Below the pieces are notes generated by a model. It saw only the letters and a list, made by a program, of their open reading frames with translations, was not told where the DNA came from and ran no database searches. From IMG/VR virus record IMGVR_UViG_3300024270_000070: DNA of 64,000 nt; one strand, given 5' to 3'. The stretch comes from a virus. Positions 10,530-52,703 of the stretch are shown piece after piece. Position 1 is the stretch's first letter. Every line of letters begins with the position of its first letter. Both the position numbers and the translations under genes were made by a program.

Positions 10530-13500
10530 ATGGCAAAGAAATTTTGGGAAGGCGAAGTAAATATGTTGACCGATTGGGGTGGTGATGCCTCTACGGGTAA
10601 TCTCCCTCTTTCAGGAGAAAGAGTACAATCTTTCATTAAAGAAAGCATTAATTCTAAAGTAGGTTATATTGGTGAGGTAAAGACGACTTCAGGTGGTTTC
10701 TACGTTCTTTGTAGGGATGCTGAAGTTTTTGCTGCTTATCAGGAGACCATTACTGAAGATGCCCCATTTGGAGACCTCACCCTTGATGGTGTTGTGGGTC
10801 GTTTTGACGCTCCTTTTAATTACACGATGAAAATTGAGGTCCTTGAACCCGAAGGCGGTTATAAGTCCGCACTGGCCGGGTCTACAGGAAATGTGATTCG
10901 TTTTAAGGCTGAGACACAGGATAACTCAGGGGCTCCTCAGCAAGAGGGTGTTACAGTTACTTACCGTATCAAGAACGGTAGTGGAGTTGAATCATCACAG
11001 ACAATTATTTACCCTTATAATCAGATTTCGGATGGAGTGACATATAATCTTGATGGAAGAATATCTGCAGGCGAAAATGTTGTAACAATAACAGTTGTCG
11101 GTGAAAATACGGGTATTTCAAGTATGCGCCGTATCACATACAACCTTTTGGATATATATTTTACTGATAGGTTTGATATTACGAAACGTTATGCGTTCGA
11201 TTCGACTGGCGTCCTTTCAATCCCTGTGGGATATGACCTTAAGGGTGTCGGTGAAACCACTGTTTATTATTATTTTGATGGGAATCTTCAAGGTGAATAT
11301 AAGGAAAGTAATGAAAATCCTGTTATCAATAATGCAAACAAGAATTTTGTGTTCACAACACACGATGCTTGGATGAATATCGGCCTTCACACTCTTCAGA
11401 TGTACATGAAGTGCGTTGATACCGAATCAAAGGAAGCATTCTACACCCCAATTTATTATAGGGAATTTATTGTTGAAAACACTCCTACCGAAATTGAAAC
11501 CCCTTATATAACAAGAAAGTTGGATTTCGATTACTCTAAAGGTATTCTCCCTAAGGGTGGGGTTCCTACTTATTATGGGGCAAAACAATTTGAAAACCTT
11601 GCAATAACTTATGCTGCTTATTATAATGGTAAAAGTACTTGTAATGTTAAGACATATATTGAATATCCGGGAATGGATATGATGGAGATTTCTACTGAAG
11701 ACCTCCCACTCGTTCTTGACAGTTTCTCTGCAATCAAGAAACAGGAGTTCAATCTTTTAGAGGAAGGTCCAACGAAACTCTATCTTCGTGCTTATTATGA
11801 TGAGGAATACTTTGAGGCGGAAGCAAATATCGAAATTGATAAGAGTGATATGAATCTTACAACTTCAGATGAAGGCGTTGTTCTTTATCTTAATGCTTTT
11901 GGTCGAAGCAATGACTCAGATGACTTAAGCGTCCTTGCAAAATGGGAGTACCGTTATCTTAATGCATTGGGGCAGGAAGAAGTAATTACCACCGATTTCT
12001 CGACAAACGAATATGTTGTCGTATCTTCTAAGGATAATGATGGGAATATAATTCCACCAACAGGTATTGAAGTTGATAACTGTCTTGAGGTGGACGAACT
12101 TCCTCTTGAAGAGAATGAAGATTATGACTTCTTGATTTTTAATGGGGAGTATTATGCATGGAATCGTGAGTTCGACTGGTCAAATACATCAGGATGGTCA
12201 GATGGTAAACTTAAACTCGCAAATGGTAATGCAATTACAATTAATTACAAACCATTTGATGAGGATAAACTTGCAACAATGAAGTTGCAGGGAGCAACAT
12301 TTGAGTTTGAATTCGAGACAACCAATGTATATAACGATGATGCTGTGATTTGCCGTATTTGTGGTAGTGATAATTTTGCCCCTGGTATTAGTATCTATGC
12401 TGCAGGTGCTGAATTGGCGATTTCTCGTGATATTGTAACAGGGGATGGGGAGAATTCGGGATATGCTAAAATGGTGTCTACTAAATATAAGGCTGAGGAA
12501 AGTAACCGCATATCATTTGTTATTACCCCTGACCTTAATGAGGAAGGATATCGTAATCGCATATTGAGTATTTATGTTAATGGTGAATACTGCGGTGCAT
12601 ACGCTTATGATGCCGGTACAAATTTCTACAATGATTCAAAAATCATGTTCCGAGGAAATAAGGATGCAGGTATTAATATTTATTCGATAAAACTCTACAA
12701 CAGAGCACTTTCAAGTACTGAAATTCTTGATAACTTCATTTATTATAGGAACAGCAGTGCTGAGAAGAGAGCCCTTTATGAGCGAAACAATATAGTTCTT
12801 GAATCTAATAAGGAACAGTTCGATGCTGACAAACTTAAATCATCAATTCCTGTAATGACGTTCTATCAGATTTTTGAAAATGAAAAAATTGAAGACCTTC
12901 ATCAGGAGAAGAAGAATAAAAAGTTAACAAGACACTTCGATGTCCTTTATACCAATATTCAGAACCCAAGTTATAATTTCTTTGTGAAATGTGCTTATAT
13001 TACTCCACAGGGTACTTCTTCAATGAACTATCCGGTGAAGAATTTCCGTCTTTATACAGCAAAGGATGATAGAACGGAACTTTATGTTGGTTCAAACATT
13101 TTCTTGGATGGTAACCCAGGAAATCGTGATGCAAGTAATCTTAATCCTGAAGCGCTTGTTGCAAAGGGTAAATACGCATTTAAAGAGGGTTCTATACCTG
13201 TTAAGTGTTGGTGCCTTAAAGCCGATTTTGCTGAGTCATCGTCATCACATAATACAGGTACTGCACGTTATTGGAACGGTGTGTTGAAAAATGGTGGATA
13301 CAAGACCAAAGCACAGGCAAAGGCTGAAAAATATGCTGAAGAATATCCATATGATGTCCGTACATGTATCGATGGTTTCCCAATTGTTCTTTTCTACGAA
13401 AGATTGGGTGGTGCTGCGCCGGAATTCCAAGGGAAATATAATTTCAATAACGATAAATCAACTGAAGATGTCTTCGGTTTTACCGGCGGTATTGAAATTG

Positions 13501-16500
13501 ACGACCAAGAGGTTCAATATTTTTACATTGGTAATGAAAAGCCTATAATACATGGTGAAGAGGATGATAAAACAGGTGAGATAGAATACGCTTGTTCTTG
13601 GTCAGAGGGTGGTTACACTTCAACCCCTGACGTTGATTCGGACCTTTATACATCGAAATATCTTGAGGACGGTTCACAGGAATGGTATATGCTCCGTGGT
13701 AAAGAACTTCTTGATAACCCTAAGATGGAATGTTGGGAACTTCTTAACTCGGTTAATGAGCTTGCACTCTTTAAGACTGCCAAGGGATTCATGGTTGGTG
13801 ACGATGATGAAAAGGTTGGTATTCTCGTAAACGGTTCATTTGACGGTGCTTTCGAGTCTCGTTTCCCTGACTGTGGTGATTATTTCCACACAAACTCTTT
13901 GAGGAGATTTGCTGAATGGCTTGTTTCTTGTCGTTATTTGAATATCGACAATGAGACAGGTATGGCTGTGCCGTTCTCACAGGCAGCACTGCCAACAGAA
14001 AATTACTATCGTGACGCTGATGGAAAACTGATTATCCAAAGTCTTACTAAACAAACAGGGACATTTAAGATTAGTTATCCTAATTATAATTTCTATACTG
14101 AGGTCCCATATGAATCAATTTCATCGCAAATCACTAAAGATGGTTATGCATTGACAGAAATTGCTGATGATGTTATTGACAGTATTGAATACAATGAAGT
14201 TGATGTTATTCCTACTGAAAAAGATAGTGAATATGAATATATTAAATGTGGCGACTATTTCTATACATGGCAGTTAAGTAATCTTCTCCGTGTTGATGTA
14301 CTCCCTGAAGTAGAACAAGGAAATTATGATTTTGTTTGTGTCGGTGGAGACAAATATTATGTATGGAAAAACGAATTTGACTTTGCTCCATATTATGAGG
14401 CGCAACGTGTTGATGACACTCCTTTCAACAGAGCATTAAAATTTGCTGTGGAGAAATATGACCATATTGAAATGGATAAGATGGCTGCTTATTATATCTA
14501 TCTTATGCGTTTTGGTGGTGTTGACCAAACCGTGAAGAATAGTATGTTGACAACTGAAGGACCTAATACAAGTGACCCTAATTCAACATTGCCTTCTCTT
14601 TGGTTTTTCATCAACTATGACAACGATACAATTCTCGGTGTGAAGAATGATGGTCGTCTTGTTTTCGACCCTTACATTACTCGTGAGACTAAGGATGGTA
14701 CTGGTTATGTATATGCGGGCCGTGAGTCTACACTTTGGAACAACCTTGAGGCTGATGTTGAGTTCATGGAACATGTGACTGAGGTTGACAACAAACTTAC
14801 TGATTCAACTTCAAACCCTCTTTATAGCCTTTCATACGCAAATGCATTGAGAGAATATGACACAAATCAATCTGATATGTGGTGTGAGCGCATTTATAAT
14901 AAAGATGCTGAAACTAAATATATTAAGACTTATGTAGAGGGATGGACACAGAAGGTCGATAAAGAGGGCACCGCAACTCACGTTTATGAGGATTATCTCT
15001 ATGACGTGCAGGGTTCTCGTTCGGCTCATAGAAAATGGTGGCTTGGACGCCGTTTCAACGTGTTTGACAGTCGTTTTGCTAATGCTAACTTTAGGGCATC
15101 ACTTATTAAGTTCCGTTCAACAAACCTCCCTGCAGGCTCTGAGTTTACCATTAAATCAGGTGAACCTGTTTATTATGCATGGGGCCATGATAATGTTATT
15201 ACGGAGATGACTCCTACTGCACTTATTGCAGGTACAAATCATACTTTCAGAACTGCGTCAGCATTCAATATCGGTTCATATCTTGAACTAATGGGTGCTG
15301 CGAATATTTCTACATTTGACCTTCGTGGCTGCGTTGGTGCGTTGACTGAAATTGACGTTACCGGTTGCTATTCTCCTTCAGTCGGTACCAAAATGAAAGA
15401 AATTCTTGTTGGTGACCATACACGAACTGATTTAGTGAACAACGGTACTGCAATGAAATTCAGTGGACTTGATGTTGCTGAGAAACTTGAGGTTCTTGAC
15501 GTAACTAACATCAGGAATATTGATAAACTTGATGGACTTAACAAACTTCTTAATATCCGCAACGTATTTGCAAAAGGTACTTCGATTGCCAATTTTACAT
15601 TTGCGGATGGTTGCCTTGTGCAATATGTAGAACTACCGTCAACAACTGAAACACTTTCATTGACTAGGTCATCAATGATTTATTATGATGGTATTGTATC
15701 AGAAGACCCGACATTTGCGAGATTGAATAACCTTACAATTGACAATTGTAGGAACCTTATGAATGATTTCAACTTTGTATTGAATTGGGTTGCTGTTAAG
15801 AGCAATAGGAATGAACTTAACAAAGTTAATCTTAATCTGCAGGGTATCAATTGGGTATTCGATAGAACCAACTATAACAAACTGTTCTCTTTGGCGGGAA
15901 TTGGTAAGTCGCAGTTATCATCATTGAACGTTCGTGGTAATATTGAGATTAAGTCAGACCTTACCTTCAATGACATTGCGCAACTTAAGTCGATTTTTGG
16001 AGTAGATTGTTTCAAGGAAGGTTCTGCAGTGTATATTAAGGCATATACAGGTGTTTATGCGACAGAGGTTCCGTACATTTATGAAGGTGATGGCGATATC
16101 CGTATTGACGTAACAACAGTAGGTACACAACTTGGTGGTGAGATATCTGTTTATGCAACAGTCAACGAAATTGAGGAGGATGGTACTTCAGTAAACAAAA
16201 TTATTGAGGCTACTGAAGGTATTATTACAATGAATACTGATAATCTTAAGAGGGATTATTTCACCATTAAAGTATTGGAGAGCAACAACAATTATACATA
16301 TTTGAATCTTTCAATAGAATATGAGGATGAGAAAAATGAAATACCACTCCAACTTTCTATCCCAATTAAGAAACGTATCTACCCTTCAGAACTGTCAATT
16401 ATGTCATTAAAGGATTTGTATGATGATGACGATAAGAATAAACTTTGGATTGATTTCATCCCTTCATCAGTTAATGATGAAGAACTCGAAGGCCGTGGTA

Positions 16501-19439
16501 TATTCTCTGTAAAATGGGAGATTATAGGCGGTTCAAGTGGATATGCAAATAAGGTTTCTCTTACTGACACTGATAAGGAGATGGCATACATTCAGGCCCC
16601 TGCGGGTTTTGATGGCGTCGTTATGGTTCAGTGTACAGTAACAAGGGATTATGATGGTTTAGAACTTTGTGTCAACACTAAAGAAATTGGGTTTAAGGAC
16701 CCTAATACAATTATCACTGAAGCAATGAACGCCCCTGTTTATAACATTCTTGTTGATGCGGGAATTATTGTGGAAGATGAGACTGGTTATGGTAAACTTA
16801 ATAAGATGGAGGCTGCTAATGTTACCATTGAACAACTCCTTAAAACGGATTATAGCGGTAAGAAGACTTCTATCTTTGCTAATCACCCTGAAATTACATC
16901 ATTCCTTGAATTCCAATATTTTACAAGTTCTCTTATCGGACAAATGCCACAGGAGGGTAATGTAAATCAGGTACTTATTCCTGAAGGTTTCTTTGCAGGG
17001 TGTAGTGGAATGAGAGAAGTGGCATTCCCACCAAGTTTCTTCTATGCAAATGCAAAGATGTTCTCAGGTTGTACAGCCCTCGAAAGTATTTATGGAGCAC
17101 AGAGTGGGTATGATGAGGAAAAGAACCCTACTTATAAACCGCTGTCATTTAAATATATAGGAGCCCAACTTTGTGAAGGTTGTACTCAGTTGAAGAAATT
17201 TGAACTTGGTAATAACTGTGAATATATTGGAAAGCATGCTTTCAGGGGTTGCGAATTATTGACTGACTTTGCGGTTCCATCAATTGATACTCTCGAAATT
17301 GTTTATGGTGTTGATAATAACCCATTCCAGGGATGTCGTAACATCAATTTCCTTGGTTCAGAGTATGACGGAGTTTCAAAGGCAAGTAAATGTCAGGTTT
17401 ATGATGGTGCCCTCTATGAGGTGAATGATGATTCAATAACTCTTATCCGTTTGGGTAAAGATACAGCGTCAGCCAATATCATTAACACAGTTCCTGTATA
17501 TGCGTGTGGCTATTCAATGCAATATAGAAGAGAAGCCAATGTTGTTATACCTGAAAATGTTATCCTTAATGGACAGTACATATTTGAAGGGTCAGAAGGA
17601 CAAAGCATAAAGTTGAATTGTTTAACAAATAATAAATCAACAAATTTATTCACCAACACAAATTATGGGAATAACTATGCCTTTGCAAGCAATGAAACGT
17701 TAATACCTGATAAGTGTTTCTATCAAAATGGTTATCCTATTAATTGTATTATACCTGAAGGAATAAAAACAATTGGAAGTTCGACTTTCTATTCCGTAAG
17801 TAATTTGAAAACCATTACATTCCCTTCAACATTGGAGTCAATTGGAGGAAATTCTTTCTGGTTGTCAAATCAGTTAAAAACATTAAAGTTCAATGGTTTA
17901 ACCCCACCTACTACAGTAAATGGAGATTTCTTCAATGTGACGTTGGATGAAATTATAGTTAAACCGGAGGCTTATGAAGCATTCTCGACAGGTTTTGTTT
18001 CGAATGATAATGGTAAAGAGATTAATCTTCTCTCACCACTCGTTAGAATATCCCATCTTTTCAGTGAAGGATACGTACGCATTATTAAGGATGGCGCAAT
18101 TCTTTCGGCAGATGAAAACAATATAATTATGGTTGGCGGTCTTGAAACTACTCAGGAAAGTGATTACCATAAGTATACAACTGACGATATCATTACTGAT
18201 TTGAATATTACTTTGAACGGAGAAGTGGTTGGTATTGTTGAGGGTCAATACACTACGATTTATCTTGGCGATAATTCAATGCTTTTCTCGGGTGAGGGAT
18301 ATAACTTCACTAAAGGTGTTTATGATGACTCGGTTAAGGCTCTGATGGCAACTAACGGATGGTTCTATGATAAACGTTTTGAGGGTATTAGAAATGGTAA
18401 ACTTGAAGGTGGAACTTCTAGTTCTCCAGTACATACTTCTATGGAGTTCGACCTTTCAATGCTTTCAGATACATCATCGGTTAACGTGGAAATGGGACAG
18501 TGGTCACAGTCTGATTATCGTTGGGCGGTCATAACCAATGGTAATGGTGATGAAATTATGAATTTCAAGAGAGACAATGGTTTCAATAAAAAATTGAACA
18601 TTGCATTAAACGATGATTCAATTATATTTAAATATAGGGGCGAAAACTCTATTGGTACAGGTATTGATGGTTTGGTTGTTAACACAATTGGTAATAAGAT
18701 ATATAGTGACCCTATGATGTCGGCAATGTTACTTTCTAATGATACCACAAATTATGTGCGACCTATTGCAATAACATTGGTATGTGACCAAGATATTCCA
18801 TATGGAACTGTTATTGAACTTGTTGATAACAAGGGGCATGAATACCGTCGAATATATTCGGGCGAAACCATGTATTTTACGCTCCCAATGAATAATTTCA
18901 ATGTAAAGGCTAATGGTTTCGTAACTGAGGGCGGTAAAAAGTTTAATACTGTTATTGATACAATTCCTGCATCATTTGAAGGCGATTTTGAAATTGTCTA
19001 TGAAACTGAAATAGGTGTTGAAACAGTGGGTAGTGTCATTTGTGTGAAACTTTCCGATACTGATTATTACATCGATACTGTAAGCGGGGCAATGCCATGG
19101 GGTTCTAAGGGGATTGCAATTGAAGGAACTGATGTTGATGATGTCATGATGTCGTCAGCAAATGGCTTTAAAAATACTAATGCAGTTCTCGCTGCTGACC
19201 CTGAGAATGAAATGTTTGCAATTGCAGTAAACAATAATTTCGGCGATAAGACAATAAAAGGTTATATCCCTTCATATGAGGAAATGCTTGTTGTTGCCGA
19301 AAATACGGATATTGATTTTACCGGATGTTGGACTTCTGAAACTCAGGGAACTGAAACAGCATGGTGTTTTGATGGAAATGCTTATGATAGAGGGGCTACC
19401 ATGAAATATTATATTTTTGGTAAAAAGATTGTTTTTTAA
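10530..19439 (+). CDS. giant (2969 aa) virion/adhesin-like protein with LamG-like domain and BspA-type leucine-rich repeats
   Basis: LamG-like block ~aa 590-740 (ICRICGSDNFAPGISIYAAGAEL...ILSIYVNGEYCGAYAYD...IYSIKLYNRALSSTEILDNF); BspA-like LRR block ~aa 2130-2450, nt ~16920-17880 (IPEGFFAGCSGMREVAFPPSFF..MFSGCTALESIYG..GAQLCEGCTQLKKFELGNNCEYIGKHAFRGCELLTDFAVPSI..). Confidence 0.6.
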   Translation: MAKKFWEGEVNMLTDWGGDASTGNLPLSGERVQSFIKESINSKVGYIGEVKTTSGGFYVLCRDAEVFAAYQETITEDAPFGDLTLDGVVGRFDAPFNYTMKIEVLEPEGGYKSALAGSTGNVIRFKAETQDNSGAPQQEGVTVTYRIKNGSGVESSQTIIYPYNQISDGVTYNLDGRISAGENVVTITVVGENTGISSMRRITYNLLDIYFTDRFDITKRYAFDSTGVLSIPVGYDLKGVGETTVYYYFDGNLQGEYKESNENPVINNANKNFVFTTHDAWMNIGLHTLQMYMKCVDTESKEAFYTPIYYREFIVENTPTEIETPYITRKLDFDYSKGILPKGGVPTYYGAKQFENLAITYAAYYNGKSTCNVKTYIEYPGMDMMEISTEDLPLVLDSFSAIKKQEFNLLEEGPTKLYLRAYYDEEYFEAEANIEIDKSDMNLTTSDEGVVLYLNAFGRSNDSDDLSVLAKWEYRYLNALGQEEVITTDFSTNEYVVVSSKDNDGNIIPPTGIEVDNCLEVDELPLEENEDYDFLIFNGEYYAWNREFDWSNTSGWSDGKLKLANGNAITINYKPFDEDKLATMKLQGATFEFEFETTNVYNDDAVICRICGSDNFAPGISIYAAGAELAISRDIVTGDGENSGYAKMVSTKYKAEESNRISFVITPDLNEEGYRNRILSIYVNGEYCGAYAYDAGTNFYNDSKIMFRGNKDAGINIYSIKLYNRALSSTEILDNFIYYRNSSAEKRALYERNNIVLESNKEQFDADKLKSSIPVMTFYQIFENEKIEDLHQEKKNKKLTRHFDVLYTNIQNPSYNFFVKCAYITPQGTSSMNYPVKNFRLYTAKDDRTELYVGSNIFLDGNPGNRDASNLNPEALVAKGKYAFKEGSIPVKCWCLKADFAESSSSHNTGTARYWNGVLKNGGYKTKAQAKAEKYAEEYPYDVRTCIDGFPIVLFYERLGGAAPEFQGKYNFNNDKSTEDVFGFTGGIEIDDQEVQYFYIGNEKPIIHGEEDDKTGEIEYACSWSEGGYTSTPDVDSDLYTSKYLEDGSQEWYMLRGKELLDNPKMECWELLNSVNELALFKTAKGFMVGDDDEKVGILVNGSFDGAFESRFPDCGDYFHTNSLRRFAEWLVSCRYLNIDNETGMAVPFSQAALPTENYYRDADGKLIIQSLTKQTGTFKISYPNYNFYTEVPYESISSQITKDGYALTEIADDVIDSIEYNEVDVIPTEKDSEYEYIKCGDYFYTWQLSNLLRVDVLPEVEQGNYDFVCVGGDKYYVWKNEFDFAPYYEAQRVDDTPFNRALKFAVEKYDHIEMDKMAAYYIYLMRFGGVDQTVKNSMLTTEGPNTSDPNSTLPSLWFFINYDNDTILGVKNDGRLVFDPYITRETKDGTGYVYAGRESTLWNNLEADVEFMEHVTEVDNKLTDSTSNPLYSLSYANALREYDTNQSDMWCERIYNKDAETKYIKTYVEGWTQKVDKEGTATHVYEDYLYDVQGSRSAHRKWWLGRRFNVFDSRFANANFRASLIKFRSTNLPAGSEFTIKSGEPVYYAWGHDNVITEMTPTALIAGTNHTFRTASAFNIGSYLELMGAANISTFDLRGCVGALTEIDVTGCYSPSVGTKMKEILVGDHTRTDLVNNGTAMKFSGLDVAEKLEVLDVTNIRNIDKLDGLNKLLNIRNVFAKGTSIANFTFADGCLVQYVELPSTTETLSLTRSSMIYYDGIVSEDPTFARLNNLTIDNCRNLMNDFNFVLNWVAVKSNRNELNKVNLNLQGINWVFDRTNYNKLFSLAGIGKSQLSSLNVRGNIEIKSDLTFNDIAQLKSIFGVDCFKEGSAVYIKAYTGVYATEVPYIYEGDGDIRIDVTTVGTQLGGEISVYATVNEIEEDGTSVNKIIEATEGIITMNTDNLKRDYFTIKVLESNNNYTYLNLSIEYEDEKNEIPLQLSIPIKKRIYPSELSIMSLKDLYDDDDKNKLWIDFIPSSVNDEELEGRGIFSVKWEIIGGSSGYANKVSLTDTDKEMAYIQAPAGFDGVVMVQCTVTRDYDGLELCVNTKEIGFKDPNTIITEAMNAPVYNILVDAGIIVEDETGYGKLNKMEAANVTIEQLLKTDYSGKKTSIFANHPEITSFLEFQYFTSSLIGQMPQEGNVNQVLIPEGFFAGCSGMREVAFPPSFFYANAKMFSGCTALESIYGAQSGYDEEKNPTYKPLSFKYIGAQLCEGCTQLKKFELGNNCEYIGKHAFRGCELLTDFAVPSIDTLEIVYGVDNNPFQGCRNINFLGSEYDGVSKASKCQVYDGALYEVNDDSITLIRLGKDTASANIINTVPVYACGYSMQYRREANVVIPENVILNGQYIFEGSEGQSIKLNCLTNNKSTNLFTNTNYGNNYAFASNETLIPDKCFYQNGYPINCIIPEGIKTIGSSTFYSVSNLKTITFPSTLESIGGNSFWLSNQLKTLKFNGLTPPTTVNGDFFNVTLDEIIVKPEAYEAFSTGFVSNDNGKEINLLSPLVRISHLFSEGYVRIIKDGAILSADENNIIMVGGLETTQESDYHKYTTDDIITDLNITLNGEVVGIVEGQYTTIYLGDNSMLFSGEGYNFTKGVYDDSVKALMATNGWFYDKRFEGIRNGKLEGGTSSSPVHTSMEFDLSMLSDTSSVNVEMGQWSQSDYRWAVITNGNGDEIMNFKRDNGFNKKLNIALNDDSIIFKYRGENSIGTGIDGLVVNTIGNKIYSDPMMSAMLLSNDTTNYVRPIAITLVCDQDIPYGTVIELVDNKGHEYRRIYSGETMYFTLPMNNFNVKANGFVTEGGKKFNTVIDTIPASFEGDFEIVYETEIGVETVGSVICVKLSDTDYYIDTVSGAMPWGSKGIAIEGTDVDDVMMSSANGFKNTNAVLAADPENEMFAIAVNNNFGDKTIKGYIPSYEEMLVVAENTDIDFTGCWTSETQGTETAWCFDGNAYDRGATMKYYIFGKKIVF

Positions 19440-45235: not shown

Positions 45236-45276
45236 CTCCAACGGTTCCCTGCGCAAGAAACGTTGGAGTTTTTTTG
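45236..45276 (+). terminator. intrinsic terminator
   Basis: CTCCAACG-17 nt loop-CGTTGGAG followed by TTTTTTTGTTTT. Confidence 0.6.
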
Positions 45277-45718: not shown

Positions 45719-47278
45719 ATGTCAAGTACACTTACTTATGTGGTCATTGGAATTGTGGCATTCCTTGTCCTTTTTATTTTTGCGTCTTATGTTAAGACAT
45801 CGCCACAGATTGCTTATATTATATCAGGACTTACTAAAAAGCCTAAAATTCTTATTGGTTCAGGTGGATTTAGGATTCCGTTCTTTCAGAAACTTGATAA
45901 GGTTTATACCGGACAGATTACAGTTGATGTAAAGACAACAACCCCTGTCCCAACCTCAGACTTCATCAATGTAGATGTGGATGCTGTGGCAAAGGTTAGA
46001 ATTATGCCAACTGAAGATGGGATTAGGCTTGCAAGTGCGAACTTTCTTAATATGTCTCCTGAGATGATATCTCATCAGGTGAAGGATGTTCTTCAGGGTA
46101 ATATGCGTGAGATTGTTGGAACACTCGACTTACGCGCCCTTAACACAGACCGTGATGGTTTCTCTAATCAGATTCAGAAGAAGGCTGCTGTTGATATGGA
46201 ACGCCTGGGTATTGAAATTCTTTCATGTAATATTCAGTCAGTAACTGACCGTGAGGGGCTTATTGAGGCTCTCGGTGCTGATAATACATGCAAGATTACT
46301 AAGGAGGCTGCCATTAATAAGGCACAGGCCACAAAGGATGTGAAGGTAGCAGAGGCTCAGGCTCTTCAGGAATCAAATGATGCACGTGTTGCGTCGGAGA
46401 CGAAGATTGCTGAGAAAAACAATGAGCTTGCAATCAAGAAGTCAGAACTTAAGATTTCGGAAGACATCAAACGTGCTGAGGCTGATGCTGCATATGAAAT
46501 TCAGAAGCAGGAACAGGCAAAGACCATTAAGGTGAAGACCGTTGAGGCACATGCTGCCGAGGCTCTTATTGAGGCTGAAAGACGCAAGGAAATCAATGCA
46601 AAGCAGGTTGAGGCGGAGGTTGAAAAGGCTGCCAAGACACAGGAATTGAAGGCTCAGGAAATTGCCATCATGCAGAAGACTCTTGAGGCGGAAGTAAATA
46701 AGAAGGCTGATGCTGATAAGTATCATAAGGAAGTTGCGGCTGCAGCAGAACTTGAACAGCGCAAGAGAAAGGCTGAAGCAGAGACATATGAGGCTGAGCA
46801 GAGGGCAAAGGCTATGAGAGCGGAGGCTGAGGCACTTAAGTTTAAGATGGAACAGGAGGCTCTCGGTATCAAGGCTAAGGGTGAAGCTGAGGCTTATGCA
46901 ATTCTTAAGAAGGGTGAGGCTGAGGCTGAAGCAATGAACAAGAAAGCCGACGCTTATCAGAAGTATAATGATGCTGCAATTGTTGAAATGCTTGTTGGTA
47001 TTCTTCCTGACATGGCCAAGAACGTTGCTGAACCAATCAAGTCAATTGATAATGTTACCATTTATGGTGGCGGTGATAATAATGGTGTCTCAGGCGTATC
47101 AGCAAATGTCCCAATGGTCATCAAACAGACATTTGATACGGTTTCCAATGCGACAGGCGTGGACCTTTCTAAGATTCTTGAGTCCCACACAATTAATGCT
47201 AAGACCGATAGAAATGTTTCGCTTAAGGGTGGACATGTTGAGGTTGAAGCAACGGGTAAACAGATTCTTCACGACTAA
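45719..47278 (+). CDS. SPFH/band-7 (flotillin-like) membrane protein
   Basis: N-terminal TM; SPFH core (ILIGSGGFRIPFFQKLDKVYTGQITVDV...VDAVAKVRI); long A/E/K coiled coil typical of flotillin/YqiK. Confidence 0.65.
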   Translation: MSSTLTYVVIGIVAFLVLFIFASYVKTSPQIAYIISGLTKKPKILIGSGGFRIPFFQKLDKVYTGQITVDVKTTTPVPTSDFINVDVDAVAKVRIMPTEDGIRLASANFLNMSPEMISHQVKDVLQGNMREIVGTLDLRALNTDRDGFSNQIQKKAAVDMERLGIEILSCNIQSVTDREGLIEALGADNTCKITKEAAINKAQATKDVKVAEAQALQESNDARVASETKIAEKNNELAIKKSELKISEDIKRAEADAAYEIQKQEQAKTIKVKTVEAHAAEALIEAERRKEINAKQVEAEVEKAAKTQELKAQEIAIMQKTLEAEVNKKADADKYHKEVAAAAELEQRKRKAEAETYEAEQRAKAMRAEAEALKFKMEQEALGIKAKGEAEAYAILKKGEAEAEAMNKKADAYQKYNDAAIVEMLVGILPDMAKNVAEPIKSIDNVTIYGGGDNNGVSGVSANVPMVIKQTFDTVSNATGVDLSKILESHTINAKTDRNVSLKGGHVEVEATGKQILHD

Positions 47279-47297
47279 ATGTTGATATAATAGAAGT

Positions 47298-47332
47298 AAA
47301 CGGGATGTGTCTCACGACAGGTCCCGTTTTTT
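47298..47332 (+). terminator. intrinsic terminator, copy 1 of a 35-nt element repeated at 62848
   Basis: AAACGGGATGTGTCTCACGACAGGTCCCGTTTTTT: ACGGGA/TCCCGT outer stem, TGTC/GACA inner stem, T6. Confidence 0.65.
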
Positions 47333-47380
47333 ATATAAGTAGCAAAAAAAAGAATTTTTTTAGGTTTGGCATGGTTTTTG

Positions 47381-47388
47381 TATATTTG
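47381..47388 (+). promoter_or_regulatory. Bacteroides-type -7 promoter motif TATATTTG upstream of IS left end
   Basis: no ORF follows for ~260 nt. Confidence 0.35.
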
Positions 47389-47653
47389 CCCTGAGAATGT
47401 TAAATTATGATTTTATGACAGAACGTACTAAAACACATTTGAAATTAATCGGTTTGAGACTTTGGTTAATTCCTTATTTTTTCATATAAATTTATCGTAG
47501 GGAAACTCCATCCTTTAGGGTGGAGAGGAACTACGATTAAACCCTTTTTGGTTAAACATTATTTTCTTAATGTAAATATATAACTTTTAAAAAAAAATAA
47601 AACTTTTTAATTTATTATAATATTTATATATAGAAATCACATACGTGAATGCT

Positions 47654-48820
47654 ATGATTGTACAAACCTATAACATACCTCTAATAATGGATGATACCAA
47701 TGCAACGCATTGGTACAATCTTCTTGTATGTGCAAGAGATGCGTACAATAGGTGTACACGTATTCTACATGATAACAAAATAACACTGTCACTTAAAAAA
47801 GTACACGAGGCGTGTTATAACGTAATTAGGACAGAGTTTCCTGCTTTATCTTCACAGATGGTAATCAAGTGCGAACAAGCAGCAGCGTCTGCTTTGAAAT
47901 CAATTAAAGCAAACAAACATAAGAACGCTGAAGTACCACAGAGAAAATCATTAACAATGACCCTCGATAAACGCCTCTACGGAGTGCTTACATCTGAAGG
48001 AATAACCATTACTGGGGCACAGAAAAACAAACGTACTTTCGTACCTTTTAATGTCTATCCTAAGGCAAAAGAAATGCTTAGTACTTATAAGGCATATGAC
48101 CCTACAATATTCTATAGAAACGGGAATTTCTTCCTTTCAGTACCCTTCGAAGTACCTGAAAAACCATTACATTCTGAGGAGTGCATAGGTGTTGACCTCG
48201 GTGCAAGAATGATATTTGTTACCTCAGAGGGTAAGGCATTTAAAGATACAACATATCTTAAGAAGCGTAGGGACATCCGTTATCTTAAGCGTAAACTACA
48301 AGAGAAAGGTACCAAATCAGCAAAGCGCCACCTTAAGAAAGTTCGCAACAAGGAACGCAACCTCTCTAAGGACATGTGTTATCGTGCAAGTAAAGTACTC
48401 ATTAATAGTACAAATGCTTCCATCATTGTGATGGAAGACCTCACAAAGATTAAAAAGAAAACTTCACGTACCAGTGAGGGGTACAAGAGAGCGAAGCATA
48501 ACAATGCTTTATCTCAGATTCCATTTTATGAATTTAAACGTATATTGACTTACAAGGCACCACTTGCGGGCAAGCAGGTGGAAACAGTTTCTCCGATGTA
48601 TACAAGTCAGATGGATTGTCGCACCAATAATCGTGATGGAGAGCGCCGTGGTCGCAGATATATCTGCGTTGACGGAGTTGTCTTTGACTCAGATTGGAAT
48701 GCTGCGATTAATATCGGACAAAGGTCCAACCACCCTGTATCGAGTTTTTTACCAATTGAAGGTCAATTGGTTATCCTTACAGGCAGGGAGCAGTCAACCT
48801 CCCAATCGACATGCCTCTAA
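47654..48820 (+). CDS. tnpB: TnpB (RuvC-like RNA-guided nuclease / IS605 OrfB family)
   Basis: RuvC-I GVDLGARMIFV, RuvC-II IVMEDLTKIKK, zinc finger CRTNNRDGERRGRRYICVDGVVFDSD, RuvC-III DSDWNAAINI; track start 47645 is GTG. Confidence 0.8.
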   Translation: MIVQTYNIPLIMDDTNATHWYNLLVCARDAYNRCTRILHDNKITLSLKKVHEACYNVIRTEFPALSSQMVIKCEQAAASALKSIKANKHKNAEVPQRKSLTMTLDKRLYGVLTSEGITITGAQKNKRTFVPFNVYPKAKEMLSTYKAYDPTIFYRNGNFFLSVPFEVPEKPLHSEECIGVDLGARMIFVTSEGKAFKDTTYLKKRRDIRYLKRKLQEKGTKSAKRHLKKVRNKERNLSKDMCYRASKVLINSTNASIIVMEDLTKIKKKTSRTSEGYKRAKHNNALSQIPFYEFKRILTYKAPLAGKQVETVSPMYTSQMDCRTNNRDGERRGRRYICVDGVVFDSDWNAAINIGQRSNHPVSSFLPIEGQLVILTGREQSTSQSTCL

Positions 48821-48866
48821 CGAGGCAGTGTCAAGCACCCTCCTTTAGGTGGGTGTAGTTGACTGC
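48650..48866 (+). ncRNA. putative TnpB omega-RNA (reRNA) scaffold overlapping tnpB 3' end and RE
   Basis: long-range pairing CAGTCAAC (48791-48798) with GTTGACTG (48858-48865) enclosing the RE hairpin; extent approximate. Confidence 0.4.
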
Positions 48867-48878
48867 AATGGAATAACC

Positions 48879-49082
48879 ATGATTTTGGGTATTTTTATCT
48901 TTTTTACAACAATTGTTCTTGGAGGACCATTGTGGATAATTAATGGAAATCCTTTTTCTTGGATGGATTGGTTTCCTGATAATTTGGATATTCCTACATT
49001 ATTCGAATGGGATGATTTTAGGGAAGATGTTGCTGATAAGCAAAGAAAGTTTGACAAAGGTGAAAATATTTTTGGGGACTAA
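48879..49082 (+). CDS. small membrane protein
   Basis: first ATG of track ORF 48849..49082 (track start is GTG inside RE hairpin); one TM (ILGIFIFFTTIVLGG). Confidence 0.35.
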   Translation: MILGIFIFFTTIVLGGPLWIINGNPFSWMDWFPDNLDIPTLFEWDDFREDVADKQRKFDKGENIFGD

Positions 49083-49136
49083 TTACTTTGGCACGGTATT
49101 TGCAGTAAGATAAGAAAACTTTTAAATAAAAACTTT

Positions 49137-49892
49137 ATGAGAATTAATGAATTGATTTTAAACAGACAGAGAAGTTTTGACCTTGATGATACCCTTCTTT
49201 GGAAGAAATCTGCAGAGAAACAGGAATGTTTTGTTAGGGATAGTATATGTACTAATCTCTTGAAAACTCCTTGTTTTGTCGTATCATCACATATGAGCAA
49301 GAGTTGCTTACTTCCCGTATATATGTTTAGACTTAATAATGGTATTACTGTAATTTGTCGAGACAATTTTCATGGGTGGGTTGTAACTGTTAAGACCCCG
49401 GGAGACGCATTCATAGTAAGTCTTCCTAAGGACCTTGTATATGGCGATTTATATAGTACTAATAATGATATCAGTCCTTTATATTGTGAGGGGTTCATAG
49501 AAAAATGGGTTTTCCCTTATAATAATGCTTATGGTCATGAGATGACAGTGAATGTGCGTGACGATTTTTCATTTTGGGCGTTGATGAGGGAACTAAATAA
49601 ATATGATTTCGGATGGAGGCCTCACGTTGGGTTGCCACAGAATAGTGAATGTATTGCTGATGCCCTGTCTTACGCTAAATCAGTGAATAAAGAAATGCGT
49701 CTTTATGAAATTTTCAGTCAGACATATCGTGCAACTGAAGACCAAATGGGTTGGTGTTCGGCTTATGATGTTTGGGCTGATGAGGGTCAAATCATTGAAC
49801 TCCTGATTAAAGACAATGGACTTTTCAGTGTTTTTGGGAGAGAATGGGACACGTTCCAATATGGTACGAATTTTGAAAATTTTGATGAGTAA
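49137..49892 (+). CDS. hypothetical protein
   Basis: ORF track. Confidence 0.4.
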   Translation: MRINELILNRQRSFDLDDTLLWKKSAEKQECFVRDSICTNLLKTPCFVVSSHMSKSCLLPVYMFRLNNGITVICRDNFHGWVVTVKTPGDAFIVSLPKDLVYGDLYSTNNDISPLYCEGFIEKWVFPYNNAYGHEMTVNVRDDFSFWALMRELNKYDFGWRPHVGLPQNSECIADALSYAKSVNKEMRLYEIFSQTYRATEDQMGWCSAYDVWADEGQIIELLIKDNGLFSVFGREWDTFQYGTNFENFDE

Positions 49893-50158
49893 TGGATAAA
49901 CGAGAATACAGAACTCCTGAGAGGTTTAAAGCTGCATTGAAATCAATTAAAAGTTATAATACGGGCCTTGGTTTGGATATGAGAAAATTCAGCAAAAATG
50001 AAATGATGGATGAGTTTTGCAAGGGTGCTGTATATGGTGAGGAAAGGGCTTTTGAATGGTTTAAGGATTTTGCTCTTGATTATATATCCGGGGATGTTAC
50101 TGATGTTAGGTTTGGATTAATGTACGATGATTATAAAAAAGCAATGGGGTATGAATAA
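49892..50158 (+). CDS. hypothetical protein
   Basis: ORF track; ATGA-type coupling. Confidence 0.35.
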   Translation: MDKREYRTPERFKAALKSIKSYNTGLGLDMRKFSKNEMMDEFCKGAVYGEERAFEWFKDFALDYISGDVTDVRFGLMYDDYKKAMGYE

Positions 50159-52583: not shown

Positions 52584-52703
52584 TTTGGCACGTTTTTTGT
52601 CGTAACTTAAATTATAATTTTAAAACACTATTTTATATGTACAATATTGGTGATAAGATTACAAAGAAGATTGACAAACGGTTTAAATGCCCTTGAACGT
52701 ATA

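Follow-up and report, generated by a model that had tools for sequence, protein, structure and literature searches.

Whether the gene for a TnpB-like protein at 47654..48820 of the virus record IMGVR_UViG_3300024270_000070 (IMG/VR) is a settled gene of its phage or the core of a mobile element was the question raised by this locus, which we addressed in a stretch of 64,000 nt from that record (hereafter, the window). An earlier note, made from the sequence alone, had proposed a tnpB-only element of the IS200/605 type, and the comparison of the window with fetched homologous loci and contigs (designated by L-numbers such as L022, L031 and L032) agrees with that proposal: the segment 47486-48863 is very probably a non-autonomous, tnpB-only insertion sequence (IS) of the IS200/IS605 family carrying its own omega-RNA and residing in a large phage, with sharp ends shared with unrelated phage contigs and no tnpA in the window. 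The parts of the element, the TAM and guide beside it, the promoter-like motifs and the ORFs of 24, 67 and 2,969 aa described here all lie on the + strand.

The limits of the element were established by its homology with L031, L032 and L033, and enclose 1,378 bp (47486..48863). Using blastn, L031 displayed 96.9% identity to the window over 1,396 nt, the rest of the 64 kb showing no similarity, while L032 and L033 were ~79% identical at the nucleotide level over the element; homology to the three loci begins at 47473-47481 and ends at 48863/48864, leaving the rest of the window unmatched. When the copies were aligned base by base, all of them turned alike at TTCATATAAA on the left side, and on the right side they parted at the first base past GTAGTTGAC. 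Ends that are shared with independent loci as such sharp limits of homology are beyond what chance would produce. Base composition also breaks at the element, GC skew being close to 0 inside it and +0.2 to +0.45 in the phage genes on either side.

The same element was found at different genomic sites, its copies being 79-97% identical in nucleotides, having different neighbours and showing ~20 distinct right flanks. A large protein database holds 438 homologs of the TnpB, the closest being those of L031 (98% amino acid (aa) identity) and of L032 and L033 (84%), whose neighbouring genes are wholly different from those of the window; no near relative of the locus at the DNA level was present in the GenBank phage collection. 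The presence of a 97%-identical copy in an unrelated contig implies that the element moved recently. Pattern scans for the right end (RE) returned 27 copies, a few of which are repeated samplings of one insertion; in nearly all 27 the flank past GTTGAC was unrelated, and the left flank was not repeated there. In agreement with this, no target-site duplication could be read from the flanks of the copies, these being flank readings and not readings of an empty site. The earlier note had named tnpB at one and the same locus without terminal hairpins as the sign of a domesticated gene; what we found was homologs of 79-97% nucleotide identity at different loci, always with the same hairpins at the left end (LE) and RE.

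The 5' flank of LE, from which it had been suggested that the transposon-adjacent motif (TAM) be defined, did yield one. Of the 17 LE copies, whose flanks are otherwise unrelated, 15 have (T)TCAT at a constant spacing from the LE hairpin, and more distant sister elements (37-50% aa identity) display TTCAC or TTCAT at that place, followed by unrelated sequence. The TAM is therefore TTCAY across copies and TTCAT in the window (47481..47485), where it belongs to the target and lies just outside the element, so that the first base of the element is 47486.

Both ends carry imperfect subterminal hairpins in place of terminal inverted repeats. The LE stem-loop (47494..47537), called correctly in the earlier note, has at its base an outer stem (47494-47500/47531-47537), which the internal loop GGAAA/AGGAA separates from an imperfect inner hairpin at 47506-47525, CTCCATCC-TTTA-GGGTGGAG (arms 47506-47513/47518-47525), with a conserved T.G/T.T mismatch; its DNA fold has an energy of -9.6 kcal/mol (z = -2.6). 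Twelve distinct copies were aligned without gaps, and among them each of the seven pairs of the outer stem had changed on both sides; 97.6% of the cells were paired, compared with 41-52% in slid controls. The RE hairpin (48836..48855; arms 48836-48843/48848-48855) reads CACCCTCC-TTTA-GGTGGGTG and has a conserved T.T mismatch where LE has T.G; the two hairpins are thus alike in architecture and loop, and in each of them the third pair counted from the loop is a conserved mismatch. Such mismatches are typical of the imperfect palindromes of IS200/IS605 elements. In sister families the sequence of the RE stem is wholly different and its complementarity is kept. The inner RE hairpin of the earlier note consequently stands; the outer GTCAA/TTGAC extension that it had added gained no covariation support and was rejected, since only CAA/TTG is kept while the outer bases vary without compensation, and its arms compete with a pseudoknot that is compensated (see below). 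The last six bases of the element, GTTGAC (48858..48863), form the RE cleavage end, copies being alike up to this point. Between LE and the gene, an AT-rich segment (47538..47653) comprising the LE interior and the tnpB 5' leader is kept in A-type and B-type copies; the tnpB promoter is presumed to be within it, although a sigma-70 scan gave sites no commoner than expected by chance.

The tnpB gene (47654..48820) encodes a protein of 388 aa, assigned as an RNA-guided nuclease by Pfam, PDB hits, the family alignment and a fold match. Its homologs begin at the ATG at 47654, an in-frame GTG being located upstream at 47645. Searches against Pfam detected PF07282 (Cas12f1-like_TNB, E 3e-15), with PF01385 (OrfB_IS605) below threshold, and phmmer against PDB sequences retrieved TnpB and Cas12f chains with E values of ~1e-8 to 1e-6; in these alignments the motifs GVDLG, VMEDL and DSDWNAA correspond to RuvC-I, RuvC-II and RuvC-III. 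The complete RuvC triad announced in the earlier note (D181/E261/D345) was borne out, residues D181, E261, D345 and D347 being invariant in a family alignment of 28 sequences with 52-97% identity to that of the window. An AlphaFold2 model built from this family alignment (mean predicted local distance difference test score, pLDDT, 86) matched Cas12f, ISFba1 TnpB and ISDra2 TnpB over its full length in Foldseek, with E values of 1e-18 to 1e-12 and template modelling (TM) scores of ~0.5-0.66. The ratio of nonsynonymous to synonymous substitution rates (dN/dS) between tnpB copies at different sites is 0.065-0.23, which indicates purifying selection and a protein that stays functional while the element moves. 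The zinc finger that had also been announced is not there: the TNB domain itself is present, but the four zinc-binding cysteines are absent, the CxxC...CxxC of reference TnpBs being replaced in the window by DCRTN...ICVDG and, in the clade at large, by C/S/N and C/G at the corresponding positions.

A structured RNA of ~130 nt, overlapping the 3' end of tnpB and RE (48734..48863), was defined by fold, covariance model and covariation as the scaffold of an omega-RNA (also termed reRNA). When folded, the terminal 164 nt of the element gave an energy of -60.1 kcal/mol (z = -4.3), in a structure that includes a long-range GUCAAC/GUUGAC helix. The scaffold is composed of an enclosing stem, P0 (48734-48739/48777-48782), compensated in L039 and L076; S0 (48752-48758/48764-48770); P1 (48786-48790/48799-48803); P2 (48808-48817/48822-48832), which has the tnpB stop codon in its loop; and P3 (48836-48843/48848-48855), which is the RE hairpin. 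Sister elements follow the same layout, namely a stem with a GTCAAC loop, CCAATCG, a variable hairpin, CAAGC, the RE hairpin and GTAGTTGAC. The covariance-model search that the earlier note had recommended recovered a conserved, covarying RNA over the 3' end of tnpB, ending at RE: a model built from six window-type copies matched the window once only, at 48739-48863 (157 bits), and in addition 42 related elements at their 3' ends, all 43 matches ending at the RE boundary. In the scaffold alignment 87.6% of the cells were paired versus 60.2% in shuffles, the covariation score was 0.453 versus 0.115 in shuffles and at most 0.078 with the partners slid, and 26 of 28 pairs had changed on both sides, none of 500 shuffles reaching any of these measures. 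This alignment was fitted to the covariance model and hence favours the structure, but the compensations are visible in the raw sequences as well, both for P1 (GGGAG/CTCCC, GGCAT/ATGCC, GCCG/CGGC, GGCCA/TGGCC, GGTTG/CAACC and GCAC/GTGC) and for P2 (GCCTC/GAGGC, GCTTC/GAAGC, ACTTT/AAAGT, GCCCCG/CGGGGC and AAGGGT/ACCCTT).

Because GUCAAC (48793..48798) sits in the loop of P1, its long-range pairing with GUUGAC (48858-48863) constitutes a pseudoknot, whose 3' strand is formed by the last six bases of the element. This pairing was 99.5% conserved as paired, with the compensated variants GTCAAT/ATTGAC (L039), ATCAAC/GTTGAT (L013) and TTCAAC/GTTGAA (L008 and L009). The long-range stem of the earlier note accordingly holds for six of its eight base pairs; the additional CA/TG pair uses flank bases that are specific to this insertion. 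A pseudoknot involving the 3' end beside the guide is canonical for prokaryotic omega-RNAs (PMC13565253). The whole of 48734-48863 thus has the layout of a canonical TnpB omega-RNA; its expression, its processing, its binding by TnpB and the TAM-dependent DNA cleavage that it would direct are predictions.

S0 offers an observation of its own, as it lies inside the tnpB frame: the window has CCAATTG/CAATTGG and L033 has CCAGTCG/CGACTGG, changes (48752-48770) that keep the pairing while altering two amino acids (I to V and Q to R). As read from the aligned sequences, this is a clear case in which RNA structure constrains protein sequence. An Rfam match to HEARO, the omega-RNA of IscB, at 48766-48863 on the - strand was discarded (19.7 bits versus a threshold of 83 bits, E 0.42); the resemblance is confined to the GUCAAC...hairpin...GUUGAC end and is probably due to shared IS200/IS605 end architecture or to chance.

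The guide of this RNA is predicted to be TGCAATGGAATAACCA (48864..48879), since the sequence past RE differs in nearly every copy; its length of ~16 nt was taken from published TnpB systems and its 3' end is approximate. It overlaps the ribosome-binding region and the first base of a small ORF (open reading frame) starting at 48879, 16 nt past the end of RE, which encodes a predicted membrane protein of 67 aa (48879..49082) outside the element, recognized in the ORF list and as a gene call in the source assemblies. The earlier note had rightly located the guide just past RE and over the start of this gene, but had placed its first base at 48866, whereas the copies diverge from 48864. The sole perfect match of the guide in the window is its own position, which is preceded by GTTGAC instead of a TAM, so the occupied site would be immune. 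What it is predicted to target is the allele free of the element, in which TTCAT would be directly followed by TGCAATGG...

The ends described here are not exclusive to one type of TnpB, at least three lineages sharing the same LE and RE: the 388-aa type of the window, a 441-aa type, and that of L038 and L039. The 441-aa and window proteins display only ~25% identity over 87 aa. The elements encoding the 441-aa protein (L031 3127-4648; L034, L036, L064-L077) have LE and RE nearly identical to those of the window, the final ~40 nt of the scaffold included; both TnpB types occur in L031, 4.5 kb apart. In L080 (23-399) we detected a 401-nt mini-element with LE and RE that keeps the omega-RNA scaffold and has no protein gene, resembling PATEs (palindrome-associated transposable elements), and two viral contigs, L035 (~12564-12656) and L037 (2962-3054), contain truncated or solo right ends. 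Ends are likewise shared among TnpB clades and PATEs in bacterial IS605-group elements, and most tnpB genes in general reside in elements without tnpA (Meers et al., PMC10055086). The RE motif was also present in unrelated context in GC-rich contigs, including a contig from a Synechococcus metagenome-assembled genome (MAG) (L070, L074, L078, L079 and L082); in these the motif is a perfect-palindrome version, CACCCTCCTTTAGGAGGGTG...GTTGAC, which may represent a different IS200/IS605 lineage.

Based on published work on ISDra2 and on elements of Geobacillus stearothermophilus, we propose the following mode of action. The tnpB transcript would be processed to an omega-RNA whose 3' ~16 nt derive from flanking phage DNA. 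A Y1 TnpA provided in trans would excise the top strand and insert it 3' of TTCAT via single-stranded hairpins, the predicted products of excision being a donor joint (...TTATTTTTTCAT|TGCAATGGAATAACC) and a circle junction (...GTAGTTGAC|ATAAATTTATCG). TnpB loaded with the omega-RNA would cut element-free copies of the locus, either vacated or naive, and an occupied copy would then serve for repair, by which the element is restored or spread, permitting its retention past excision and its homing into co-infecting relatives. Homing is made plausible by the many copies of a phage genome and by co-infection; for co-infecting phages it has been treated as no more than a theoretical mode (PMC13565253). 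The presence of TnpB genes in phages is in itself already known to be frequent.

Several results weigh against the reading of the segment as a mobile, RNA-guided insertion sequence. No tnpA turned up when the window and the fetched loci having these ends were searched by tblastn with three TnpA probes; the same probes did find tnpA beside the distant elements L022 and L029. Among 185,579 species-representative genomes a single one, through a 5-kb MAG contig, contained the exact RE, which is thus nearly absent from bacterial genomes. Patterns of the empty junction were unmatched in viral and metagenome collections. Rfam, searched over 46500-50000 with E up to 10, gave no match to a TnpB omega-RNA family. 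Lastly, the nuclease activity of the TnpB is deduced from conservation only, in a protein that lacks the typical zinc cysteines. Regarding the first of these points, the related autonomous element L022, which has a tnpA, also terminates on the right in CAAGC-hairpin-GGTAGTTGAC and so connects this type of end with elements mobilized by TnpA. As for the empty site, when the exact proteins of the three neighbouring genes were looked up, every contig obtained carried the element, and these contigs were 100% identical over 4.2 kb; all contigs of the phage locus are therefore one clone sampled repeatedly, and the missing empty allele is uninformative. Relatives of a neighbouring protein of 251 aa share only ~50% identity with it and are encoded within another gene order, and relatives of the neighbouring SPFH protein in IMG/VR have no other neighbour in common with the window locus.

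Other explanations were considered in the light of this evidence. The element might be a weapon or homing device of the phage, which cuts the genomes of element-free co-infecting relatives and is over-inherited together with linked genes, independently of TnpA, in the way of the free-standing homing endonucleases of T-even phages. Its guide does match the phage's own unoccupied site, although by construction; no tnpA was found near these elements, the exact RE recurs in viral contigs while being almost absent from bacterial genomes, and the mode is among those that PMC13565253 discusses in theory. Nevertheless, ~20 unrelated sites, all 3' of TTCAY, demand true transposition beyond homing, and no naive allele of the phage was found that would show a natural target; besides, this idea overlaps the insertion-sequence reading rather than replacing it, and we consider it unlikely as a separate explanation. 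A broader version would be a phage-resident IS200/IS605 lineage, spread mainly by RNA-guided homing as a phage-against-phage weapon and reaching new sites through a rare or unrecognized transposase; it is based on the sharing of ends by at least three very different TnpB lineages and by protein-less mini-elements, with no tnpA in ~0.86 Mb of carrier DNA, and on the near absence of the exact RE from bacterial genomes, and we put it forward as a speculation that is doubtful at present.

The same missing helper and empty site, together with the clonality of all the phage copies, could also be expected of an immobile relic, that is, a decaying IS remnant, inactive now, whose ORF has stayed open by chance. 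This is very improbable given the dN/dS values between copies at different sites, the invariant catalytic triad, the 97%-identical copy in an unrelated contig and the RNA pairs upheld by compensatory change. Still harder to sustain is that the TnpB is a domesticated, TldR-like regulator that would control the downstream membrane-protein gene by binding close to its start: the overlap of the guide with the ribosome-binding region and start codon at 48879 speaks for such a function, but in every TnpB element the guide matches the adjacent DNA by construction, here without a TAM; the RuvC residues are intact and invariant, unlike those of TldR, and the gene moves together with its ends among unrelated contexts. 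An IStron was discarded, as no group I intron was found in the Rfam scan (E up to 10) and only 168 nt separate LE from the ATG. The insertion-sequence reading is thus preferred, and in it the element, though clear-cut, is an unremarkable case of a familiar kind, in line with established IS200/IS605 biology.

Among known systems, the ISGst-type elements of G. stearothermophilus (Meers et al., PMC10055086) share with it a lone tnpB between LE and RE, imperfect subterminal hairpins without terminal inverted repeats, insertion 3' of a short TAM with tnpA expected in trans, ends common to several TnpB clades and to protein-less mini-elements, and an omega-RNA overlapping the tnpB 3' end and RE. The window element differs from them in residing in gut/rumen-type phage genomes, in its TAM (TTCAT), in having no cognate tnpA located, and in the extra covarying outer stem around its LE hairpin. 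ISDra2 TnpB of Deinococcus radiodurans (PDB 8EXA, 8H1J and 8BF8) has the same WED/REC/RuvC/TNB fold and D-E-D triad, a scaffold that also ends at RE with a pseudoknot using the 3' end beside the guide, and a TAM that is again a 5-nt motif starting with TT; identity between the two proteins is only ~17-19%, the window TnpB lacks the four zinc-finger cysteines, and ISDra2 is autonomous, with its own tnpA and TTGAT as TAM, whereas the window element is tnpB-only and uses TTCAT. The best structural matches were to Cas12f of type V-F (Foldseek E 1e-18, TM ~0.6-0.66), which belongs to the same compact RuvC nuclease lineage; in contrast to it, a CRISPR array is absent here, IS ends lie on both sides of the gene, and the transposon end is what supplies the guide. 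Finally, the Seg and Mob homing endonucleases of T-even phages are, like this TnpB, encoded by selfish nuclease genes between conserved phage genes, with the unoccupied allele of a related phage as predicted target; here, however, recognition would be RNA-guided, transposon ends are present and homing is a proposal.

The locus therefore provides a well-delimited TnpB/omega-RNA element in a large phage of virulent type, whose ends, TAM, guide and RNA structure were defined by comparison, and which is suited as a test case for homing of TnpB elements from one co-infecting phage to another. To the candidate nucleases for genome editing it contributes a cysteine-less TnpB clade, compact at 388 aa, whose TAM and scaffold are both defined.

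Upstream of LE, the earlier note had recognized a Bacteroides promoter at 47381. The motif there (TATATTTG) is only a partial match with no TTTG at canonical spacing, and a canonical -33/-7 promoter was rejected on this ground; neither this nor the errors on the zinc finger, the guide start and the outer RE stem changes the interpretation of the element. The motif overlaps the first of three copies of TTTGGCA[CT]G(G/T)T.TTTG located in intergenic spots just before genes (47365-47380, 49087-49102 and 52584-52599), a pattern resembling the sigma-54 -24/-12 promoter (TGGCAC-N5-TTGC) and having four matches within 2 mismatches versus 0.87 expected. A Bacteroidota-type promoter pattern, TTTG-N17-23-TAnnTTTG, occurs 11 times in the window versus 5.4 expected, at 45273, 51438, 53225 and 60450 among other positions, several of them directly before gene starts, in keeping with a Bacteroidota host.

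The insertion site is intergenic, between a flotillin/SPFH gene (45719-47278) and the small membrane-protein ORF, within a block that includes primase-like, ClpP, methyltransferase and family-B polymerase genes. A 24-aa ORF, MTERTKTHLKLIGLRLWLIPYFFI (47415-47489), which is a candidate gene only, terminates at a stop codon located in the opening bases of the element; in an uninterrupted sequence its frame would continue as ...FIAME to a stop at 48874, which is 4 nt ahead of the ATG at 48879. The carrier is a large phage from metagenomes of herbivore-gut type, whose source contigs extend into the size class of 0.2-1 Mb, pointing to a jumbo phage; the window also contains an ORF of 2,969 aa at 10530-19439.

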